A stretch of DNA of 64,000 nt from Gammaproteobacteria bacterium (GTDB lineage: Bacteria; Gemmatimonadota; Gemmatimonadetes; Longimicrobiales; Gaopeijiaceae). Shown in pieces: positions 35,000 through 45,264 of this stretch; within the stretch, counting starts at the first letter, position 1; each line of letters opens with the position of its first letter. Position numbers and translations under genes: made by a program. The notes beneath the pieces were generated by a model. That model did not search any database. It worked only from the letters and a program-made list of their open reading frames with translations, and had not been told where the DNA came from. Location: assembly GCA_028819075.1 (NCBI GenBank), contig JAPPMM010000065.1, positions 83,067 to 147,066 of the forward strand, written 5' to 3'.

Positions 35000-36713
35000 C
35001 GCGCCGTGCGCGGCGGCGAACCGCGGGAGAACCGGCTCCGCGCCGGCGGCATCCGCGCCCGCCTGGCGCGCAAGGGGAGGTTGGTGGCCGGGAGAAGCGC
35101 GACGGTGTCGCGGCGCACCGAATCTCCCGGTGGTGCCGAAACCGTGTCGCGGCGCAGGGAGTCTGCGGCCGGCGACGGGATCGTGTCCCTGCGGACGGAG
35201 TCGGCCGGAAGCGGAATGGTGTCGCGAGCGGTCGAGTCGGCCGGGACGGTCAGCGTGTCGTCGGGCGTTGCTTCCCCGGGGGCGTCCGCTGCCGCGGGAA
35301 TGGTGTCGCGAGCAGTCGAGTCGGCGGGAGGGAGCGTGTCGCCAGGGGCCGCCGGGATGGTATCCGTGGCAACGCTGTCCGCCTCGGCTTGCGTGGTGTC
35401 TTCGGGGGGCGGGGGCGGGGCGGGACGGGTAAAGCCGACGGTGCCCCCGCCTCCCCCCACGCCGTTGATGTTGGTGATGTTCGATATCTCGACCTCGTAG
35501 GGCACCTCGGGGACCAACACCCCGTCCAGGATAACGACGAAGGTTTGCTGCGCCGTGGGCTCTTCCTGCTCCGCCTCCCCGGCTTCCGGCGCGTCCTGCG
35601 CCGCCGGAGCGGGCGGCGGGGCGGGTTCCGTCTCGGCCGGCCCGGGTGCGGCTTCGGGATCGGCTGCCGCCGTTGTATCCCCTGCCGCAGCCTCCGCCTG
35701 CGCCGCCGAATCCGCCTGCGCCTGCGCCACGCTGTCCCGAACGGCTTGTTCCCGCGCGAGGCTGTCGGCCAGCGCGCTCCGATAGGCGTCCGCCTCGTGC
35801 TGATGGAGGACGGCCAGGGCTCCGGGCGCGTCGACGCTGTCGGAAGTGACCACGACGCGCACATCGTCCAATGGGAGTTCCGGATCGAGGTAGTCGTCGA
35901 GGGAGACGCCGAGGCTGATGGAGTCCTCGACGGTAACGCGCGCGAGCCGGGCCGAGGTGGTGTCGCGCGCCAGCAGCGCGACCTCGAGCACAATCGTCGT
36001 GTCGGCGGCTTCGCCAGCGCCGTTCAATGGGGCCGGACGCGTTCCCTGGGGCTCGGTGAAGTCGGGCTGGGCGTTCCGGTTGCGGTCCAGGTAGGCGCTC
36101 ACCACATAGTCGCCCGCCGGCAGGTAGCGCAGCGCGAAGATCCCCGCGCTGTCGGTGACGGCGGTGTGCACCACGCCGCTTTCGGCGACCGCCGCATCCA
36201 CCCGCGCGTCACGAAGGGGCTCGCCCGTAAGCCGGTCGACGACCGAGCCCGCGACAACGTTGGGGGTGAACTCCGGCCCGGTCGAGAAAAACAGTTCGAA
36301 GGGTTCCTGAAGGGCATTGCCGAACATGTCCTGAATGACCGGCAGCACCGTCACGCGGTAGATGTGCCCGGCCTCGAATCCGCCCAGAGCGCGCACCGTG
36401 AGTCCCTCGCGGCCGTGCGACACGCGCACCTCGCCCGAGGCCGGCGACACCACCACCGACTGGTCCAGGGTGCCCGCGCTGGGTCGCTCGCTGATGCGCT
36501 CGCTGAAGCGGAGGGTCACCGGAGAACGGAAGGGCTCAACGGTGGAGAATGTATCCGGCTCGCTCAGGATCACGATCGGGGGAAGCCGGTCGGGAGGGCC
36601 GCCGGGAGGGGTGGCTTCGCGCGCACACCCCGCCATCAGCGCGCCGAGCAGAGCGGGCAGCAGCAGGGGCGTCCGCCCCGGATCCCTGCCCCGCGGCCGT
36701 TCGAATGCGGGGA

Positions 36714-36717
<4 letters not shown>
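34996..36717 (-). CDS. putative lipoprotein with Ig-like (SbsA/Big_5-type) and carboxypeptidase-regulatory-like domains and a repeat-rich C-terminal tail
   Basis: 573 aa. Lipobox LMAGC near the N-terminus. A Big_5-like segment (PPIVILSEP...VTLRFSERI...YRVTVLPVIQDMFGNAL) is followed by a CarboxypepD_reg-like segment (GSVVDRLTGEPLRDARVD...TDSAGIFALRYLPAGDYVVSA), an Ala/Pro/Glu-rich linker and DSxxRDT(I/V) repeats. The GTG start overlaps the valS stop. Domain calls are by eye. Confidence 0.6.
35095..35382 (-). repeat. degenerate in-frame tandem repeats encoding six DS-x-x-(R/T)-DT-(I/V) units in the C-terminal tail of the Ig-like lipoprotein
   Basis: The peptide units are ADSVATDTIP, ADSTARDTIP (twice), ADSVRRDTIP, ADSLRRDTVS and GDSVRRDTVA. 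At DNA level a 29-nt block GGAATGGTGTCGCGAGC(G/A)GTCGAGTCGGC occurs at 35213-35241 and 35297-35325, 84 nt apart, with one mismatch. Confidence 0.8.
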
Positions 36718-39463
<2,746 letters not shown>

Positions 39464-39467
<4 letters not shown>

Positions 39468-40270
39468 GTCCCCGGCGGGCGGCGCACCGAATCCCCGCGC
39501 GCCACCGCGCGCTCGGTGTCCATGCGTTCACGGATCGCCCGCGCGCGGTCCTTCCAGGACTGCTCCACGGCGGCCGCAACCGCGCCCCGCTGCAGCTCCA
39601 TCCATTCCCAGTCGCGTTCCCGCAGCTCGTTGATGCGCGAGGGGTTGGGACCGAACTGGAAGGGAAGCGGGAGCGTAATGTTGCCCAGGTGGATCTTGCC
39701 CGGGGAGAATCCCCAGCGGCCGCCGTCGGCGTCCGTGTAGGTCCAGTCCATCGCGGCGACCCGGGCGGCCTCTGCGGTCGTGATCGAGTCGATCCAGAGC
39801 TCGAGGACCGCGGCCATCTCGAAGCGGGCGCGCTCCTCGAGGGTGAGGTCGAGCAACTCCGGGTCGATGGGGCGCCAGACCTCGGGGTTGTTCATGAAGG
39901 GCCGCAACCGCTCCGCGGCGGTGCGCGGGTCGCCTGCCGGGACTTCGACGTCGGCCACGACGACCGTCGGACTCGCGTCCTCCGGAAGCTCCGCTTGCTC
40001 GGGCGCCGGGACGACCTCGGGCTCCGGCTCCGGAGCAGGCTCCGGGGTCGCTTCCTCGAGTTCGAGCAGCTGCACGATCTGCATGCCGTCCTGGCTGGCT
40101 GGTACGAAGACAGGCAGGGGCGGGAGAGCGGGCGCCGCCTCGGGGTTCAGATGCGGATAGACCAGAATCACGATCGCATGCGTCGCCACGGAGATGGCTG
40201 CCGCGACCCAGCGCACCCACCGGGGAGCCCCGGAGGAGGCGATCGAGCGGGCCGCGGGCGCATCCCTCAT
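39464..40270 (-). CDS. hypothetical membrane-anchored protein with Pro/Glu-rich linker
   Basis: 268 aa. It has one N-terminal hydrophobic helix (WVRWVAAAISVATHAIVILVY), a linker EATPEPAPEPEPEVVPAPEQAELPED, and a ~150-aa C-terminal domain with no motif I recognise. It is coupled at both ends: a 1-nt overlap with the FAH gene and a 4-nt overlap with valS. Confidence 0.55.
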
Positions 40271-40908
40271 CAGCTCGAATCGACCTCCTCCACCGCCACC
40301 GGGTTGGCCACCGTCCCGACGCCCGGGATCTCGACTTCGACCCGGTCGCCGGGAGCGAGCGGTCCGATGCCGTCGGGCGTGCCGGTCGCGATCAGGTCCC
40401 CCGGCTCGAGGGTCATGACCGCGGTGATGAAGCGGACCAGCTCGGGGATCGGGAACACCATGGTGTTCACATGGGCGTGCTGGCGCACGTGCCCGTTGAC
40501 GCGCGTGATCACCTCGAGCTGGCCGACATCCACGTCGGCCACCGGGACCGGTTCACCCACGGGGCAGAAGGTGTCGAAGCTCTTGGCGCGCGTCCACTGT
40601 CCGTCCCTGCGCTGCAGCTCGCGCGCGGTCACGTCGTTCAGCGGGACGATGGAATCGACCACGTCCCAGGCATCCTCGCGCGCCACCCCGCGGGCACGCT
40701 TCCCCACCACCAACGCGATCTCTCCCTCGAAGTCCACCCGCCCGGCCCACGAAGGCATCCGGATGGTCTCGCCGGAGGCCAGCAGCGAGGAAACCGGCTT
40801 CAGGAAGATGATCGGCTCAGGGGGAACCTCGGTGCCCAGCTCCTGTGCGTGGAGCGCATAGTTCTTTCCTACGCACACGATCTTGGTGGGGATATTCTTC
40901 AGGCTCAT
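40270..40908 (-). CDS. fumarylacetoacetate hydrolase (FAH) family protein
   Basis: 212 aa from ATG 40906-40908 (MSLKNIPTKIVCVGKNYALHAQELG...PIIFLKP...VDFEGEIALVVGK...ATGTPDGIGPL), the typical FAH-fold pattern. The upstream part of the tracked ORF is rejected. Confidence 0.8.
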   Translation of the reverse strand: MSLKNIPTKIVCVGKNYALHAQELGTEVPPEPIIFLKPVSSLLASGETIRMPSWAGRVDFEGEIALVVGKRARGVAREDAWDVVDSIVPLNDVTARELQRRDGQWTRAKSFDTFCPVGEPVPVADVDVGQLEVITRVNGHVRQHAHVNTMVFPIPELVRFITAVMTLEPGDLIATGTPDGIGPLAPGDRVEVEIPGVGTVANPVAVEEVDSS

Positions 40909-40994
40909 GGGGACGCGCCCGTGCTTTCCGTGGTTGAGGTGATCAGAGGTCGAATCGGGACCCGTCCGAGGCAGCCGCGCGCGGTTTCGGCCTT

Positions 40995-41210
40995 CTAACC
41001 GCCCGATGGCAAGCGGTTCCTCCGGCGCGTGTGCAGAAGCGTGCCGACCAATGCCCCCAATCCGGCGACGGCGAGGAAGCCACCGATCACGGCCCACCAG
41101 AAGCCCAGGTCGGCGTGCCCGCCGGCCCATCCATCCGCCGAGTGGCCGAAGGCCAGGAAGGTTATGACCGCGTAGAAGGCTGCGACGAGTATGCCGGCGA
41201 TCCGTTTCAT
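40995..41210 (-). CDS. small hypothetical membrane protein (two predicted helices)
   Basis: 71 aa, MKRIAGILVAAFYAVITFLAFG...FWWAVIGGFLAVAGLGALVGTLL. The composition looks coding, but there is no recognisable family or clear SD. Confidence 0.45.
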   Translation of the reverse strand: MKRIAGILVAAFYAVITFLAFGHSADGWAGGHADLGFWWAVIGGFLAVAGLGALVGTLLHTRRRNRLPSGG

Positions 41211-41339
41211 GGAATCAGAGCCCGATTCGGGTGCCGCGCAGAGGCAGGACCTCTGTCGCGTGAAGGGGAGACCGCGAACGCTGGTAATGTACCCCGTTGG
41301 TCGCGGGGGACAAGCTGCCGGCCGTGTCCCGGCTCTTGC

Positions 41340-43940
41340 CTATCCGGTGTGCTGCGCGGCCTGCGGTTCGCCGGCGGGCTCGTAGAATGCGCGCAAGTAC
41401 TCCTCCACGCGGCGCCAGGGCCCGTGGGCGAGCGGCGCCGGGGGGAGCGAGTCGAGCAGGTAGCGGCCGTAGCGGTACTTGACGATGCGCGAGTCCAGCA
41501 GCACCACGGCCCCCCGGTCCCGGCGCGAGCGCACCAGGCGACCGAATCCCTGGCGCAGGCGAAGCGCCGCCTGAGGCAGCATGAACTCCTGGAACGGATT
41601 CCCTCCGGCCGCCTCGATGGCTTCCATGCGTGCCTCGACCACGGGATCCGTGGGGACGCTGAACGGAAGCTTCTGGATGAGCAGTGCGCGCAGGGGGCGG
41701 CCGGGCACGTCCACTCCCTCCCAGAAGGAGGACGTGCCCAGCAGGATGGCGTTGCCCGCCTCGACGAAGCGGGCCAGGAGCCGGGACCGGTCATCCTCGC
41801 CGTGCACCAGCAGCGGCCAGGATCCCGCTCCCTCCGCCCTGAGCGCCTTCGCCACCGCGCGCAGGGATCGATGCGAGGTGAAGAGGGCGAACAGCCCACC
41901 CCCGGAGATGTCGGCGAGCGCGGCCACCGCCCGGGCCGTGGCACGATCGAAGGAACCGCTTCCCGCGGAAATTCCGAACGATGGCCGGGGCAGGTCCGAC
42001 GGGACGCAAAGCAGGGTCTGCGCACCGAAGTCGAAAGGAGAGTCGATGCGTGCTTCATCGACCTTCAGGGCGCCCACCTCCCCGGTATCGCCGGCGAGCC
42101 CGAGACGTCTTCGCAGAAAGCTGAAGTCCTTGCGCGTGGTCAGGGTCGCGGAGGTGAGCACGGTGGTGCGAACGCGCTCGAACAACTGTTCTCTGAGCAG
42201 TTCGTCCAGCTCGATGGGCGCGGCGGCGAGGTGCAGATTGCGCCGTTTGCCGCGCCGGGCGCTTCTCTGCTCCACCCAGCGAACGTATCGCTGTCCGTCT
42301 TCCGCCGGATCCAGGACGAGGCGCAGGCTCCGCGAAGCATTGGTCAGGCGGCGCTCGATGCTGCGCAGATCGAGGATCCTGCCCTCCAGCGGTTCGCGCC
42401 ACTCGTCGGTGAGCTCGATGCGCAGGGACAGTTCCGAAAGTTCGCGGGCCAGCCCAGCGAGCGCGTCCAGCAGCGCGCTGAAGTTCTCATGCACGCGAGC
42501 CCGGTCGATCGGTTCGGGGAGTTGCTCGGAACCCAGCCTGACGCGCACGCCTCCGGGGAGGGGCGTCATCTCGTCGAGGATCTCGAAGAAGGCCTGGAAT
42601 GCCGCGCGCGCCTGCGTGAGCGATGGGAGCACCCGGTCCGTCAGGCGGTCCAGAAGCGGTTTTGCGGCGGGACGTGCCAGGGAGCCCTCCGGCCGCACGC
42701 CATCCTCCGTAGCCGTGGGCAGGCCGGTGAGCTTGCGGCGCACCACGCCCGCCACGCGTTCCAGGCGGGTCAGCGTGGCGCCCAGCCCTTTTCGGCTCAG
42801 GCTTGCACCCAAGTGGCTGGTGGCGGCGTCCTCGACGTTGTGCGCTTCGTCGAGAATCAGTCGCCGGTACGCCGGCAGCGCCGCGGACTGGGTGAAGTTG
42901 TCGGTGACGATGCGCAGGGAGAGGTCGGAGAACAGCAGGTGGTGGTTCACCACCAGCACGTCGGCCGATGCCGCAACCCGGCGCGAGCGCTGGTAGAAGC
43001 AGGACTGGAAGTGCGGGCAGCGGGCGTGCAGGCAGATGTCGGAGTCGGACTGCACTTCCTCCCATACTTCGCGGGACGGGGCAGTCGCCAGGTCTGCGAG
43101 CGATCCGTCCTCCGTTGCGGCGATCCAGTCGAGCAGCCCGTTGACTTCGCGGGTGCGGTCCTCCTCGAAGAGGGTGGCCGCGCCTTCCGCCGCCAGGTGC
43201 GCGCGGCGGATGGAGATGTAGTTCCCCCGGCCCTTCATCAGCGCCCAGCGGAAGTCCTCTCCCAGAAGCTCGCGCACGAGGGGAAGATCCTTGGCGACGA
43301 GTTGTTCCTGCAGGTTGATGGTGTTGGTGGAGACGACCGTGCGTTCCTTGTTGCGGATCGCCCAGCGGGCCGCGGGGAGCAGATAGGCGACCGACTTTCC
43401 GGTGCCGGTGCCGGCCTCCACCAGGGTCACCCCTCCCTGATTGTATCCCCGCGCCACCTCCGCCAGCATGGCGCGCTGGCCCGGACGATCCTCATAGCGC
43501 CCGTGCAGGCGCGACAGCGCGCCGCCCGGGGCGGCCACCGCCTCCAGTTCGGGGATATCCAGGGGTTCGAGCGACGACGGCGGCGGCGGTTCCACCACCA
43601 CGTACAGCGCCCGCGCCAGGTTGTCGACGATGGCGCTGCCGACGCCCTGCTCGTAGAGCTGTCCGGCCACGTGGAGGTCCGCGTCGGAGGGCTCCAGCAC
43701 CCCCGAGGGGTGGTTGTGCAGCATGATCTCGCCGGTGCGCGCGTCGTTGGCGGCGGCGAGCACGGCGGCTCGATTGCCACGGGCCACGGTGCGCGGGTCA
43801 ACGATGACGCGCTCGGGGGTCACGGTGGCGAGAAAGCTGACCTCGCGCCCGCCCGCCCGCGCGATCTGCTCGCGCATGCGGCCCGCCGCCTCGCGAGCGA
43901 GGACGAGATCGGGCCGCGGACGAGTCCGCTCGGCGGTCAC
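41340..43940 (-). CDS. DinG/XPD-family ATP-dependent DNA helicase with N-terminal RadC-like JAB (JAMM/MPN+) domain
   Basis: 866 aa. Residues ~30-120 carry E(32)...HNHPSGVLEPSDAD, an exact H-x-H-x7-S-x2-D JAMM motif. These are followed by Walker A AGTGTGKS, a Cys-rich Fe-S insert CLHARCPHFQSC, the DEAH box LILDEAHN, and C-terminal helicase motifs (TSATL, SFWEGVD, QGFGRLVRS). Confidence 0.8.
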   Translation of the reverse strand: MTAERTRPRPDLVLAREAAGRMREQIARAGGREVSFLATVTPERVIVDPRTVARGNRAAVLAAANDARTGEIMLHNHPSGVLEPSDADLHVAGQLYEQGVGSAIVDNLARALYVVVEPPPPSSLEPLDIPELEAVAAPGGALSRLHGRYEDRPGQRAMLAEVARGYNQGGVTLVEAGTGTGKSVAYLLPAARWAIRNKERTVVSTNTINLQEQLVAKDLPLVRELLGEDFRWALMKGRGNYISIRRAHLAAEGAATLFEEDRTREVNGLLDWIAATEDGSLADLATAPSREVWEEVQSDSDICLHARCPHFQSCFYQRSRRVAASADVLVVNHHLLFSDLSLRIVTDNFTQSAALPAYRRLILDEAHNVEDAATSHLGASLSRKGLGATLTRLERVAGVVRRKLTGLPTATEDGVRPEGSLARPAAKPLLDRLTDRVLPSLTQARAAFQAFFEILDEMTPLPGGVRVRLGSEQLPEPIDRARVHENFSALLDALAGLARELSELSLRIELTDEWREPLEGRILDLRSIERRLTNASRSLRLVLDPAEDGQRYVRWVEQRSARRGKRRNLHLAAAPIELDELLREQLFERVRTTVLTSATLTTRKDFSFLRRRLGLAGDTGEVGALKVDEARIDSPFDFGAQTLLCVPSDLPRPSFGISAGSGSFDRATARAVAALADISGGGLFALFTSHRSLRAVAKALRAEGAGSWPLLVHGEDDRSRLLARFVEAGNAILLGTSSFWEGVDVPGRPLRALLIQKLPFSVPTDPVVEARMEAIEAAGGNPFQEFMLPQAALRLRQGFGRLVRSRRDRGAVVLLDSRIVKYRYGRYLLDSLPPAPLAHGPWRRVEEYLRAFYEPAGEPQAAQHTG

Positions 43941-43980
43941 GGGGCGGAGGTCCGGAGTATGATCTTCCCTGCCGTCGGCG

Positions 43981-45264
43981 TCAGGTCTTGCGCTGCTTCT
44001 TGCGAGCCGCCGGGAAGAGGACGTTGTTCAGGATCAGGCGATAGCCGCCTGAGTTGGCGTGCAGCGAGAGATCCGTGGGGGGATCGCCGATCTGGTGCTC
44101 GGGGTCTTCCGGATCGTGCCCGCCGTAGAAGGTCCAGGTTCCCTCGCCCCGGTTCCCGTGGAGGTATTTGGCCCATCCGCCCTCCTGCGCCAGGACGATG
44201 GCGCCCGGCTTGATGCGGTCCAGGCGGAAGGACGTGGTTAGCCCGTAGAAGTCGGAGAGCACGTCCTCATGGCTCTGCGTCAGCATCGACGGCACGGGAT
44301 CCAGCTTGGCCGAGAACTCGAAGAGCGAAAACGTGCCGAGTTCTTCCCGCCAGGGCGTATTGACCTGGTGGCCGTCGATGTCGCTGAACGCGTTGACCGA
44401 CGGAGAGAGCTGCACTTCGGCGTTCTGAAACCCCAGCGCCCGACCCCACTGCATGTGTGCCGAGGCGTCGAGGGCCGGCGGGGTCCCGTCGGCGAAGGCC
44501 GCCGCGATGTCGGCATCCCGGGCCGCCAGGGCCAGGCCGAGCGTCTCGGTTGCCGAGCACATGGCAAAGAGGAAGCCGCCTGCCTCGACGTAGTCCAGAA
44601 TCACGCTCGCAACCGCCTTCTTGAGCGCGGGCACGTGCGGATATCCGAACGCGGTCGCCACCTCCTGGTTTCGGGCCACTTCCTCCTGCAGCCAGGGAGC
44701 TCCCGCGTACGTGATGAAGAACTTGGAATACTGGCCCGTGAAGTCCTCGTGGTGGAGATGGAGCCATTCGTAGTTCTCCAGATCCCCGTTCAGGACCTCC
44801 GGATCCCAGACCTTGTCGTAGGTGATGCCTGCATACTCGAGCGCCATCGTCACGGCGTCGTCCCAGGGCGTCGTGTTGGCGGGCGTGTAGATCGCAACGC
44901 TGGGCGCCTTCTCGAGGATCACCGACTCCATGTTGGAGCGCGCGATCAGCGCGCGTATCGCGGCTACGTCGGCGGCGCCAACCGGCTCGATGCTGACGCC
45001 GCGAAACGCCGCTTCCCGACGAACGTCCTGCCTGTCCGGCAAGAGGAAGGCGCCGTCCCGGTAGTTGAGCAGCCACTCCGCGGTCGCGCCCCGCTCGAGG
45101 CTCCAGTAGGTGAGGCCGTAGGCCTTCAGGTGATCGTCCTGATCCTGGTCCATCGGCACCAGCAGATGCTGGGCCCGCAGGGCTCCCGGAGCCAGCAACA
45201 GGGCCGCGAGCAGCGTCGTCCGGGCCAGGCACCGCCCGCCTCTCGATCGGAAAGAATCGTTCAC
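43981..45264 (-). CDS. secreted hypothetical protein, possible class-I glutamine-amidotransferase-like (ThuA/DUF1355-like) fold
   Basis: 427 aa from GTG 45262-45264, preceded by AGGAGG and overlapping the upstream stop. Signal peptide LARTTLLAALLLAPGALRAQ. The segments VAIYTP...WDDAVTMALEYAGITYDKV...YEWLHLHHEDFTG and GGFLFAMCSATE are reminiscent of a nucleophile-elbow fold. The fold call is speculative. The 727-aa tracked ORF is a read-through over the TPR gene. Confidence 0.55.
   Translation of the reverse strand: MNDSFRSRGGRCLARTTLLAALLLAPGALRAQHLLVPMDQDQDDHLKAYGLTYWSLERGATAEWLLNYRDGAFLLPDRQDVRREAAFRGVSIEPVGAADVAAIRALIARSNMESVILEKAPSVAIYTPANTTPWDDAVTMALEYAGITYDKVWDPEVLNGDLENYEWLHLHHEDFTGQYSKFFITYAGAPWLQEEVARNQEVATAFGYPHVPALKKAVASVILDYVEAGGFLFAMCSATETLGLALAARDADIAAAFADGTPPALDASAHMQWGRALGFQNAEVQLSPSVNAFSDIDGHQVNTPWREELGTFSLFEFSAKLDPVPSMLTQSHEDVLSDFYGLTTSFRLDRIKPGAIVLAQEGGWAKYLHGNRGEGTWTFYGGHDPEDPEHQIGDPPTDLSLHANSGGYRLILNNVLFPAARKKQRKT

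Follow-up and report, generated by a model that had tools for sequence, protein, structure and literature searches.

A RadC-like JAB domain fused to a DinG-type helicase in Gemmatimonadota, an ordinary copy of a known family

We analyzed a 64-kb stretch of DNA (contig JAPPMM010000065.1, positions 83,067 to 147,066 of the forward strand; hereafter, the window) using the list of its open reading frames (ORFs) together with Pfam, NCBIfam and PADLOC profile searches of its proteins. The GC content of the window is 69%. A single ORF on the minus strand (41340–43940, GTG start, stop codon included) encodes a protein of 866 amino acids (aa) in which Pfam and NCBIfam recognize a RadC-type domain followed by a DinG-type helicase. 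Reading from the N-terminus, and with all features on the minus strand, the protein consists of a RadC-type JAB/MPN+ domain (43587–43907, residues ~12–118), as delineated by Pfam, a PDB profile search, an AlphaFold2 (AF2) model and Foldseek, a Pro-rich linker (43497–43586, residues 119–148; EPLD..ELEA..APGG), which is the least conserved segment in the orthologue comparison, and a DinG/YoaA-like superfamily 2 helicase body with MD1, Fe-S, Arch and MD2 domains (41382–43496, residues 149–853). An earlier reading of the locus from its letters and ORFs alone (the sequence-only reading) had claimed that both halves reside in one protein, and the profile searches agree: the Pfam RadC model (PF04002) matched residues 44–98 with 25.5 bits, above its gathering cut-off of 22.1, and the helicase models DEAD, DEAD_2 and Helicase_C_2 matched residues 153–216, 307–385 and 675–834, the last of these (PF13307, 151.9 bits; 41439–41918) corresponding to the MD2 motor domain. 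We are highly confident that the gene is a member of the family that has been named "RadC-like DinG" (Cheng 2025, PMC11981726).

The putative active site of the JAB domain was read directly from the DNA. An exact HxHx7Sx2D metal-binding and catalytic motif, HNHPSGVLEPSDAD, occupies 43677–43718 (residues 75–88), and the upstream catalytic Glu of the JAMM motif, assigned by its invariance in alignments, is Glu33 within GGREV (43842–43844), so that the complete EXnHXHX7SX2D arrangement reads E33 ... H75-N-H77-PSGVLEP-S85-DA-D88. Both elements are as the sequence-only reading had described them, including a Glu in GGREVSF that lies N-terminal to the HxH motif. In the PDB, the only sequence match to the JAB domain was 2QLC, the RadC homologue of Chlorobium; its E-value was 2.7e-3 for the protein queried alone and 8.8e-8 for a JAB family profile, while the match of AfJAMM to the profile was marginal (E = 0.45). 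A domain-only AF2 model, based on an alignment of 91 sequences from several phyla, had high confidence (predicted local distance difference test, pLDDT, 93.9; predicted template modeling score, pTM, 0.86) and showed secondary-structure elements in the order beta, alpha, two beta, beta, alpha, two beta. Foldseek placed RadC 2QLC at the top, followed by a Caldiarchaeum Rpn11 homologue, CSN5, AMSH, PfJAMM1 and AfJAMM, and all 50 of the PDB matches that it listed were JAB/MPN-fold chains or complexes containing one. In the full-length AF2 model, for which the alignment covered a single phylum, JAB residues 80–121 had pLDDT below 50, and the helicase was mostly at 80–95. The idea that a JAMM motif had arisen by chance in a region that is not a JAB domain was rejected in view of the Pfam, PDB-profile and structural matches. 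The domain is minimal, at ~107 aa, and lacks the helix-hairpin-helix (HhH) module of canonical RadC.

Conservation indicates that the site is maintained. Eight residues (E33, H75, N76, H77, P78, G80, S85 and D88) do not vary among Gemmatimonadota orthologues, the most divergent of which are 46% identical, and the same eight are invariant in multi-phylum alignments at 33–50% identity, one of which comprised 91 sequences. A phmmer search of 1.84 billion cluster representatives recovered 606 clusters with this type of JAB; among the best 150 of these, 44 representatives were at least 750 aa long, and the exact HxHx7Sx2D motif was found in 42 of the 44, at residues 54–85. The ratio of nonsynonymous to synonymous substitution rates (dN/dS) was 0.10–0.40 for the JAB half and 0.12–0.23 for the helicase half, and conservation of the JAB domain equals or exceeds that of the helicase. 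Because these residues do not vary and the JAB domain is as conserved as the helicase at a similar dN/dS, we conclude that selection has kept the active site. With E33, H75, H77, S85 and D88 all retained, the site appears catalytically intact, as had been proposed. Alternatively, the JAB domain could be non-hydrolytic and instead load, target or inhibit the helicase, either by binding DNA or protein or as a regulatory module. According to Iyer et al. (2011; PMC3239186), loss of metal ligands has occurred in certain fusobacterial RadC-DinG proteins, whose role may be limited to DNA binding, and the exact JAMM motif is missing in two of the 44 representatives. However, the metal and catalytic residues are all retained here and in the other 42, and they do not change at 33–50% identity; since these residues are precisely the invariant columns, catalysis is expected rather than a binding scaffold, and we regard the non-hydrolytic alternative as very unlikely.

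The fusion itself is robust. In a genome scan, an uninterrupted full-length ORF was found in 24 Gemmatimonadota loci (mostly Longimicrobiales) at 46–97% identity, five of them on closed long-read chromosomes, and in all more than 20 independent Gemmatimonadota assemblies, as well as genomes of other phyla, carry the identical continuous ORF. The 120 best full-length matches in the protein databases were nearly all 830–912 aa long, and most are annotated with both PF04002 and helicase domains. Purifying selection was detected on the JAB half, the helicase half and the junction. It could be argued that separate radC-like and dinG genes were joined erroneously during sequencing or assembly, or that a frameshifted pseudogene is being read through, but a continuous ORF in that many independent assemblies, closed chromosomes and other phyla included, with a junction under purifying selection, leaves this explanation with virtually no credence. 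In particular, an assembly join or frameshift near 43550–43600, a weak point that the sequence-only reading had itself raised, is ruled out by the unbroken ORF in the 24 loci. Given the same ORF in closed chromosomes and more than 100 full-length homologues, we consider the gene to be stable and not an artefact, and we assign the window to a Gemmatimonadota genome. The databases also contain many short JAB entries marked "partial", which come from short contigs. Separately, we noted JAB-only proteins of ~100–160 aa (P0346, P0356, P0377, P0402, P0430 and P0007) on contigs of 42–156 kb; truncation at a contig end may not explain these, which may represent either stand-alone forms or genes that have been split or frameshifted.

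The helicase body most closely resembles YoaA and DinG without reaching the cut-off of either. The best NCBIfam model was YoaA (NF053712) at 546.8 bits against an equivalog cut-off of 680, and the DinG equivalog models scored 465.5 (PRK08074) and 402.5 bits, each under its equivalog cut-off. Positions 248–928 of PRK08074, which follow the exonuclease domain of that model, align to residues 141–852. The best PDB sequence match was Escherichia coli DinG (6FWR, E = 4.7e-44), which Foldseek also matched to the AF2 model (E = 1.7e-40; TM-score 0.76, normalized to the target); the next best structure was the Staphylococcus aureus exonuclease-DinG. Walker A (motif I, AGTGTGKS; 43392–43415, residues 176–183) and the DEAH box (motif II; 42840–42851, residues 364–367) are present, and E175, A176, G177, T178, G179, G181 and K182 in the Walker A region are invariant. 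By homology to 6FWR, the protein is predicted to unwind DNA in an ATP-dependent, 5´ to 3´ manner.

The Fe-S site departs from the canonical arrangement. The segment CLHARCPHFQSC (42999–43034, residues 303–314) supplies three ligands, C303, C308 and C314, which are invariant and spaced as in E. coli DinG. However, the first position of the four-Cys [4Fe-4S] ligand set, given by the KGRxNYxC motif, is occupied by Ser243 (KGRGNYISI; 43212–43214), as assigned by alignment. The claim of a complete DinG helicase was therefore borne out for Walker A, DEAH and Helicase_C_2 and needs correcting for the Cys cluster, where three of the four canonical ligand positions are Cys. Ser243 is invariant in the Longimicrobiales-type clade, while Cys is found in the Gemmatimonadales loci L021 and L023 and in exonuclease-DinG outgroups; overall, the position is Cys in 36 of the 44 family representatives. 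Cheng (2025; PMC11981726) counts three or four Cys as an Fe-S domain, reports RadC-like examples with four (4C) and mentions, in general, single-residue variants of the Cys set. On that count of at least three Cys, the three Cys and Ser243 make an Fe-S domain, albeit not a 4C one, and it probably continues to bind a cluster or to serve structurally. His310, within the CPHF segment, is also invariant in the Longimicrobiales-type clade.

The fusion is found well beyond the window. ORFs with both JAB and helicase domains were detected in Gemmatimonadota, Desulfuromonadales, Geobacteraceae, Thermodesulfobacteriota, Spirochaetota (Treponema and Brachyspira), Acidobacteriota, Sumerlaeota, Bacillota (Halanaerobium and Anaerobranca), Fusobacteria and Planctomycetota, answering a call in the sequence-only reading to survey how widespread the architecture is: it is spread over several phyla. 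Within Gemmatimonadota the gene order is tetratricopeptide repeat (TPR) protein, secreted protein of ~420 aa, RadC-DinG, small transmembrane protein, FAH-family hydrolase and, further on, valS. This phylum-wide order with valS, the hydrolase and the TPR protein places the gene in a core chromosomal locus rather than a mobile island. Four metagenome-assembled genomes (MAGs) titled "Gammaproteobacteria bacterium" (VYDD01000139, JAPPHB010000132, VXNP01000012 and VXMG01000100; L001, L002, L006 and L007) carry the locus at 94–97% identity with the full Gemmatimonadota gene order and valS at 96–98%; the taxonomy assigned to them appears to be wrong, or else the contigs appear to have been mis-binned.

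To look at the neighborhood more broadly, all ORFs within 5 kb of the gene were clustered for 34 loci from at least seven phylum-level groups. Across these loci no partner gene was conserved between phyla apart from a generic histidine-kinase/response-regulator cluster, whose distance and orientation relative to the fusion vary, and no ubiquitin-like, E1 or E2 gene recurred near the fusion, leaving it with no link to a ubiquitin-like substrate system in this set. We thus rejected the notion of an operon partner that would reveal the substrate, as tight synteny is confined to Gemmatimonadota and only the kinase cluster spans phyla. The Gemmatimonadota synteny is read as inherited gene order, not functional coupling, and the gene is a stand-alone, housekeeping-type, chromosomal gene that is vertically inherited.

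This placement also bears on whether the protein is instead an immune helicase, of the type IV CRISPR CasDinG kind or belonging to a defense island. The PADLOC model "typeIV_DinG, CAS-IV-A associated" did score 448 bits on the helicase body, but it covers only the generic helicase (residues 148–836), and the NCBIfam Csf4 model (TIGR03117) reached 102 bits against a cut-off of 400. There is no CRISPR array nearby and no csf or cas gene, the neighbors being valS, the FAH-family hydrolase and the TPR protein, and in the 34 loci neither csf1–3/5 nor other defense genes were seen consistently beside the fusion. CasDinG moreover is without the Fe-S cysteines (Cheng 2025, PMC11981726), three of which are kept here. 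The sub-cut-off Csf4 score, the generic nature of the PADLOC model and the lack of arrays led us to rule out a defense or CRISPR role, which we find scarcely credible beside housekeeping repair.

Several smaller observations concern the genes around the fusion. The upstream gene (43981 to ~45250, minus strand) ends 40 nucleotides before the DinG start and encodes the ~420-aa protein, which by eye has a signal-peptide-like N-terminus and gave no match in Pfam, NCBIfam or PADLOC; it is 59–99% identical across Gemmatimonadota, which is above DinG, and always adjoins DinG in the phylum. On the other side, a hydrophobic ORF of 71 aa (40995–41210, minus strand; 41–99% identity within the phylum) runs into the extended 5´ part of the ORF for the FAH-family hydrolase (40270–41130, minus strand). 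Since the Pfam match in that hydrolase begins only at residue 83, its true start is probably downstream, in which case the two do not overlap. Two long ORFs on the plus strand, 41031–44213 (1060 aa) and 36549–39740 (1063 aa), lie opposite the DinG and valS genes, respectively; these are stop-poor shadow frames expected at 69% GC and are non-genic. A scan for promoters and terminators around the gene found none, a result that is uninformative for a non-model phylum at this GC content.

What the JAB domain replaces was apparent from the closest relatives that lack it, which align only from about residue 115–130. Two of these (L025 and L026), with helicases 31–36% identical, have an RNase_T exonuclease at the N-terminus. 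For 36 further JAB-less loci, mostly from Chloroflexota, the DxETTG Exo I motif was present in 28, and of 32 N-terminal extensions with sufficient length for scanning, 30 matched Pfam RNase_T. The sequence-only reading had noted that known DinG fusions carry a DnaQ-like exonuclease instead of a RadC domain. In the 866-aa protein, by comparison, the Pfam scan found no RNase_T and the DxETTG motif is absent. The linker motif EPLD...PGG...YE.RP.Q is common to the JAB-bearing group and the exonuclease-DinG L025 and, together with RNase_T in 30 of 32 of the nearest JAB-less relatives, indicates that the JAB domain sits in the slot of a DnaQ-type exonuclease. Among the nearest exonuclease-DinG-like relatives, three (L070, L071 and L106) have N-terminal extensions of ~230–250 aa without DxETTG, the one in L070 being without any Pfam match; these extensions may be pseudo-exonucleases (pExoDinG-like) or other N-terminal modules.

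Exonuclease displacement, together with the missing peptidase accessories described below, leads us to favor a nucleic-acid substrate for the JAB domain, as Iyer et al. (2011) proposed, although we hold this reading only tentatively. In the corresponding model, the helicase would load on single-stranded DNA at damaged or stalled replication or repair intermediates and translocate in the 5´ to 3´ direction, and the tethered JAB domain would be a Zn-dependent hydrolase of whatever the motor brings to it. The substrate would most likely be a nucleic-acid strand or end, which would make the JAB domain a functional analogue of the ExoDinG exonuclease.

The principal alternative is a peptidase-coupled helicase, in which a JAB metallopeptidase clears obstacles from the path of the moving helicase, such as DNA-protein crosslinks, covalently trapped enzymes or a protein tag. 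The characterized JAMM enzymes are all peptidases, and there is a eukaryotic precedent in FANCJ, a DinG-family helicase that works with the SPRTN metalloprotease. Yet the ~107-aa core leaves no room for the Ins-1 and Ins-2 substrate-binding insertions, RadC-type JABs are considered to be without the ubiquitin-tail groove (Iyer et al., 2017; PMC5512222), and the 34 loci, in whatever phylum, showed no linked partner gene, whether ubiquitin-like, E1, E2 or otherwise. In addition, the slot held by the JAB domain contains a nuclease and not a protease in the nearest relatives, and no report of peptidase activity of a bacterial RadC was found in the literature searched. We consider the peptidase alternative unlikely, though it deserves to be taken seriously. 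A more specific version is less probable again: a single-chain bacterial machine for DNA-protein crosslinks or roadblocks, in which the Fe-S helicase would move 5´ to 3´ into a protein adduct and unfold it and the tethered JAMM site would cleave it, as in a fused analogue of FANCJ and SPRTN, with the Ser change being a secondary adaptation that alters the redox or oxygen sensitivity of the cluster. If true, this version would finally give the RadC family a biochemical role.

The argument for a nucleic-acid substrate is not ours. Iyer, Zhang, Rogozin and Aravind (2011; NAR 39:9473, PMC3239186) described fusions of RadC-like JAB domains to DinG/RAD3 helicases in five phyla, observed that the fusion helicases are closest to versions with a 3´-5´ exonuclease and, from this non-homologous domain displacement, suggested that the RadC JAB might be a nuclease, or might bind DNA where inactive. 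The inference was repeated in 2017, with the remark that RadC JABs are probably without the ubiquitin-tail groove (Iyer et al., 2017; PMC5512222). Cheng (2025; PMC11981726) then named and modeled the RadC-like DinG subgroup, with Desulfuromonas soudanensis A0A0M4DKS9 and Kuenenia stuttgartiensis A0A2C9CFG9 as examples, and noted that the lack of a HolC homologue in the genome argues against a YoaA-like partnership. For experimental RadC-JAB biochemistry after 2011, peptidase activity of bacterial RadC included, our literature search found none. The sequence-only reading had put forward the fusion as a Rosetta-stone link between RadC and DinG; the link is correct but not new, the architecture and the inference having been published in 2011 and the family named in 2025, and an earlier description of the architecture is among the outcomes that this reading had itself listed as refuting.

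Gemmatimonadota are nonetheless represented in that literature, in a different guise. Table S1 of Cheng (2025; PMC11981726) lists Gemmatimonas aurantiaca C1A7T8 as a plain "DinG, 4C", and the sequence as given there begins at the linker. In all 29 related loci (drawn from L107–L131 and L185–L200; Gemmatimonadaceae and Gemmatimonas), an intact, in-frame JAMM motif lies ~60 aa upstream of the C1A7T8 start; of 14 loci in which the codon aligned to the C1A7T8 Met was read, 11 have Val there (GTG or GTC), internal to the ORF. Judging from these alignments, C1A7T8 is probably an N-terminally truncated gene model, which probably is the reason that Gemmatimonadota were scored as having plain DinG.

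To our knowledge, few bacterial proteins that still await a demonstrated biochemical activity are as widespread as RadC, and a RadC domain tethered to a helicase is a convenient handle for finding its substrate. As the argument dates from 2011 and was restated in 2017 and 2025, the window adds no new concept. It does add that Gemmatimonadota have this fusion as their standard DinG, inherited vertically and missed by published lists, that a Ser has been fixed clade-wide at one Fe-S ligand position, and that replacement of the DnaQ-type exonuclease by the JAB domain is confirmed quantitatively in independent genomes. The present copy is an ordinary member of a known family, and that family is still a worthwhile biochemical target.

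Compared with known systems, the JAMM/MPN+ isopeptidases (Rpn11, CSN5, AMSH, PfJAMM1 and AfJAMM) share the fold and the EXnHXHX7SX2D metal site with the JAB domain, but the present protein has no linked ubiquitin-like partner and no Ins-1 or Ins-2, and sequence similarity is marginal. Canonical RadC (YicR/UPF0758; 2QLC) has the same HNHPSG...PS.AD core and JAB fold; however, it is ~220 aa long with an N-terminal HhH, whereas here the JAB domain begins near residue 12, with a helicase fused behind it, and the canonical models PRK00024 and TIGR00608 match the JAB core only, with 26 and 20.6 bits against cut-offs of 180 and 133.85. Over residues ~150–850, E. coli DinG (6FWR) is the best match among solved structures and shares Walker A, DEAH and the three Fe-S Cys, and YoaA is the best NCBIfam model, short of the equivalog cut-off; both differ in being without an N-terminal catalytic domain and in that the first Fe-S Cys is Ser in the present protein. 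ExoDinG (S. aureus DinG, PDB 8ZEF/9II8; PRK08074) has the closest helicase body outside the family, together with the linker motif and the N-terminal placing of an accessory catalytic domain, but that domain is an RNase H-like DEDDh exonuclease of ~190–240 aa, while the one here is a deaminase-like JAB of ~110 aa, and the two folds are non-homologous. The closest counterpart is RadC-like DinG itself, which has the same domain order (a minimal JAB of ~110 aa at the N-terminus, then a linker, then a YoaA-like DinG that includes Fe-S and Arch domains), the conserved E/H/H/D (here E33, H75, H77 and D88) and JAMM proteases as structural neighbors. The present protein differs from it in its host phylum, Gemmatimonadota being in neither the Iyer et al. 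(2011) nor the Cheng (2025) list, and in the "SCCC" Fe-S site of its clade, compared with 4C in the reviewed examples.

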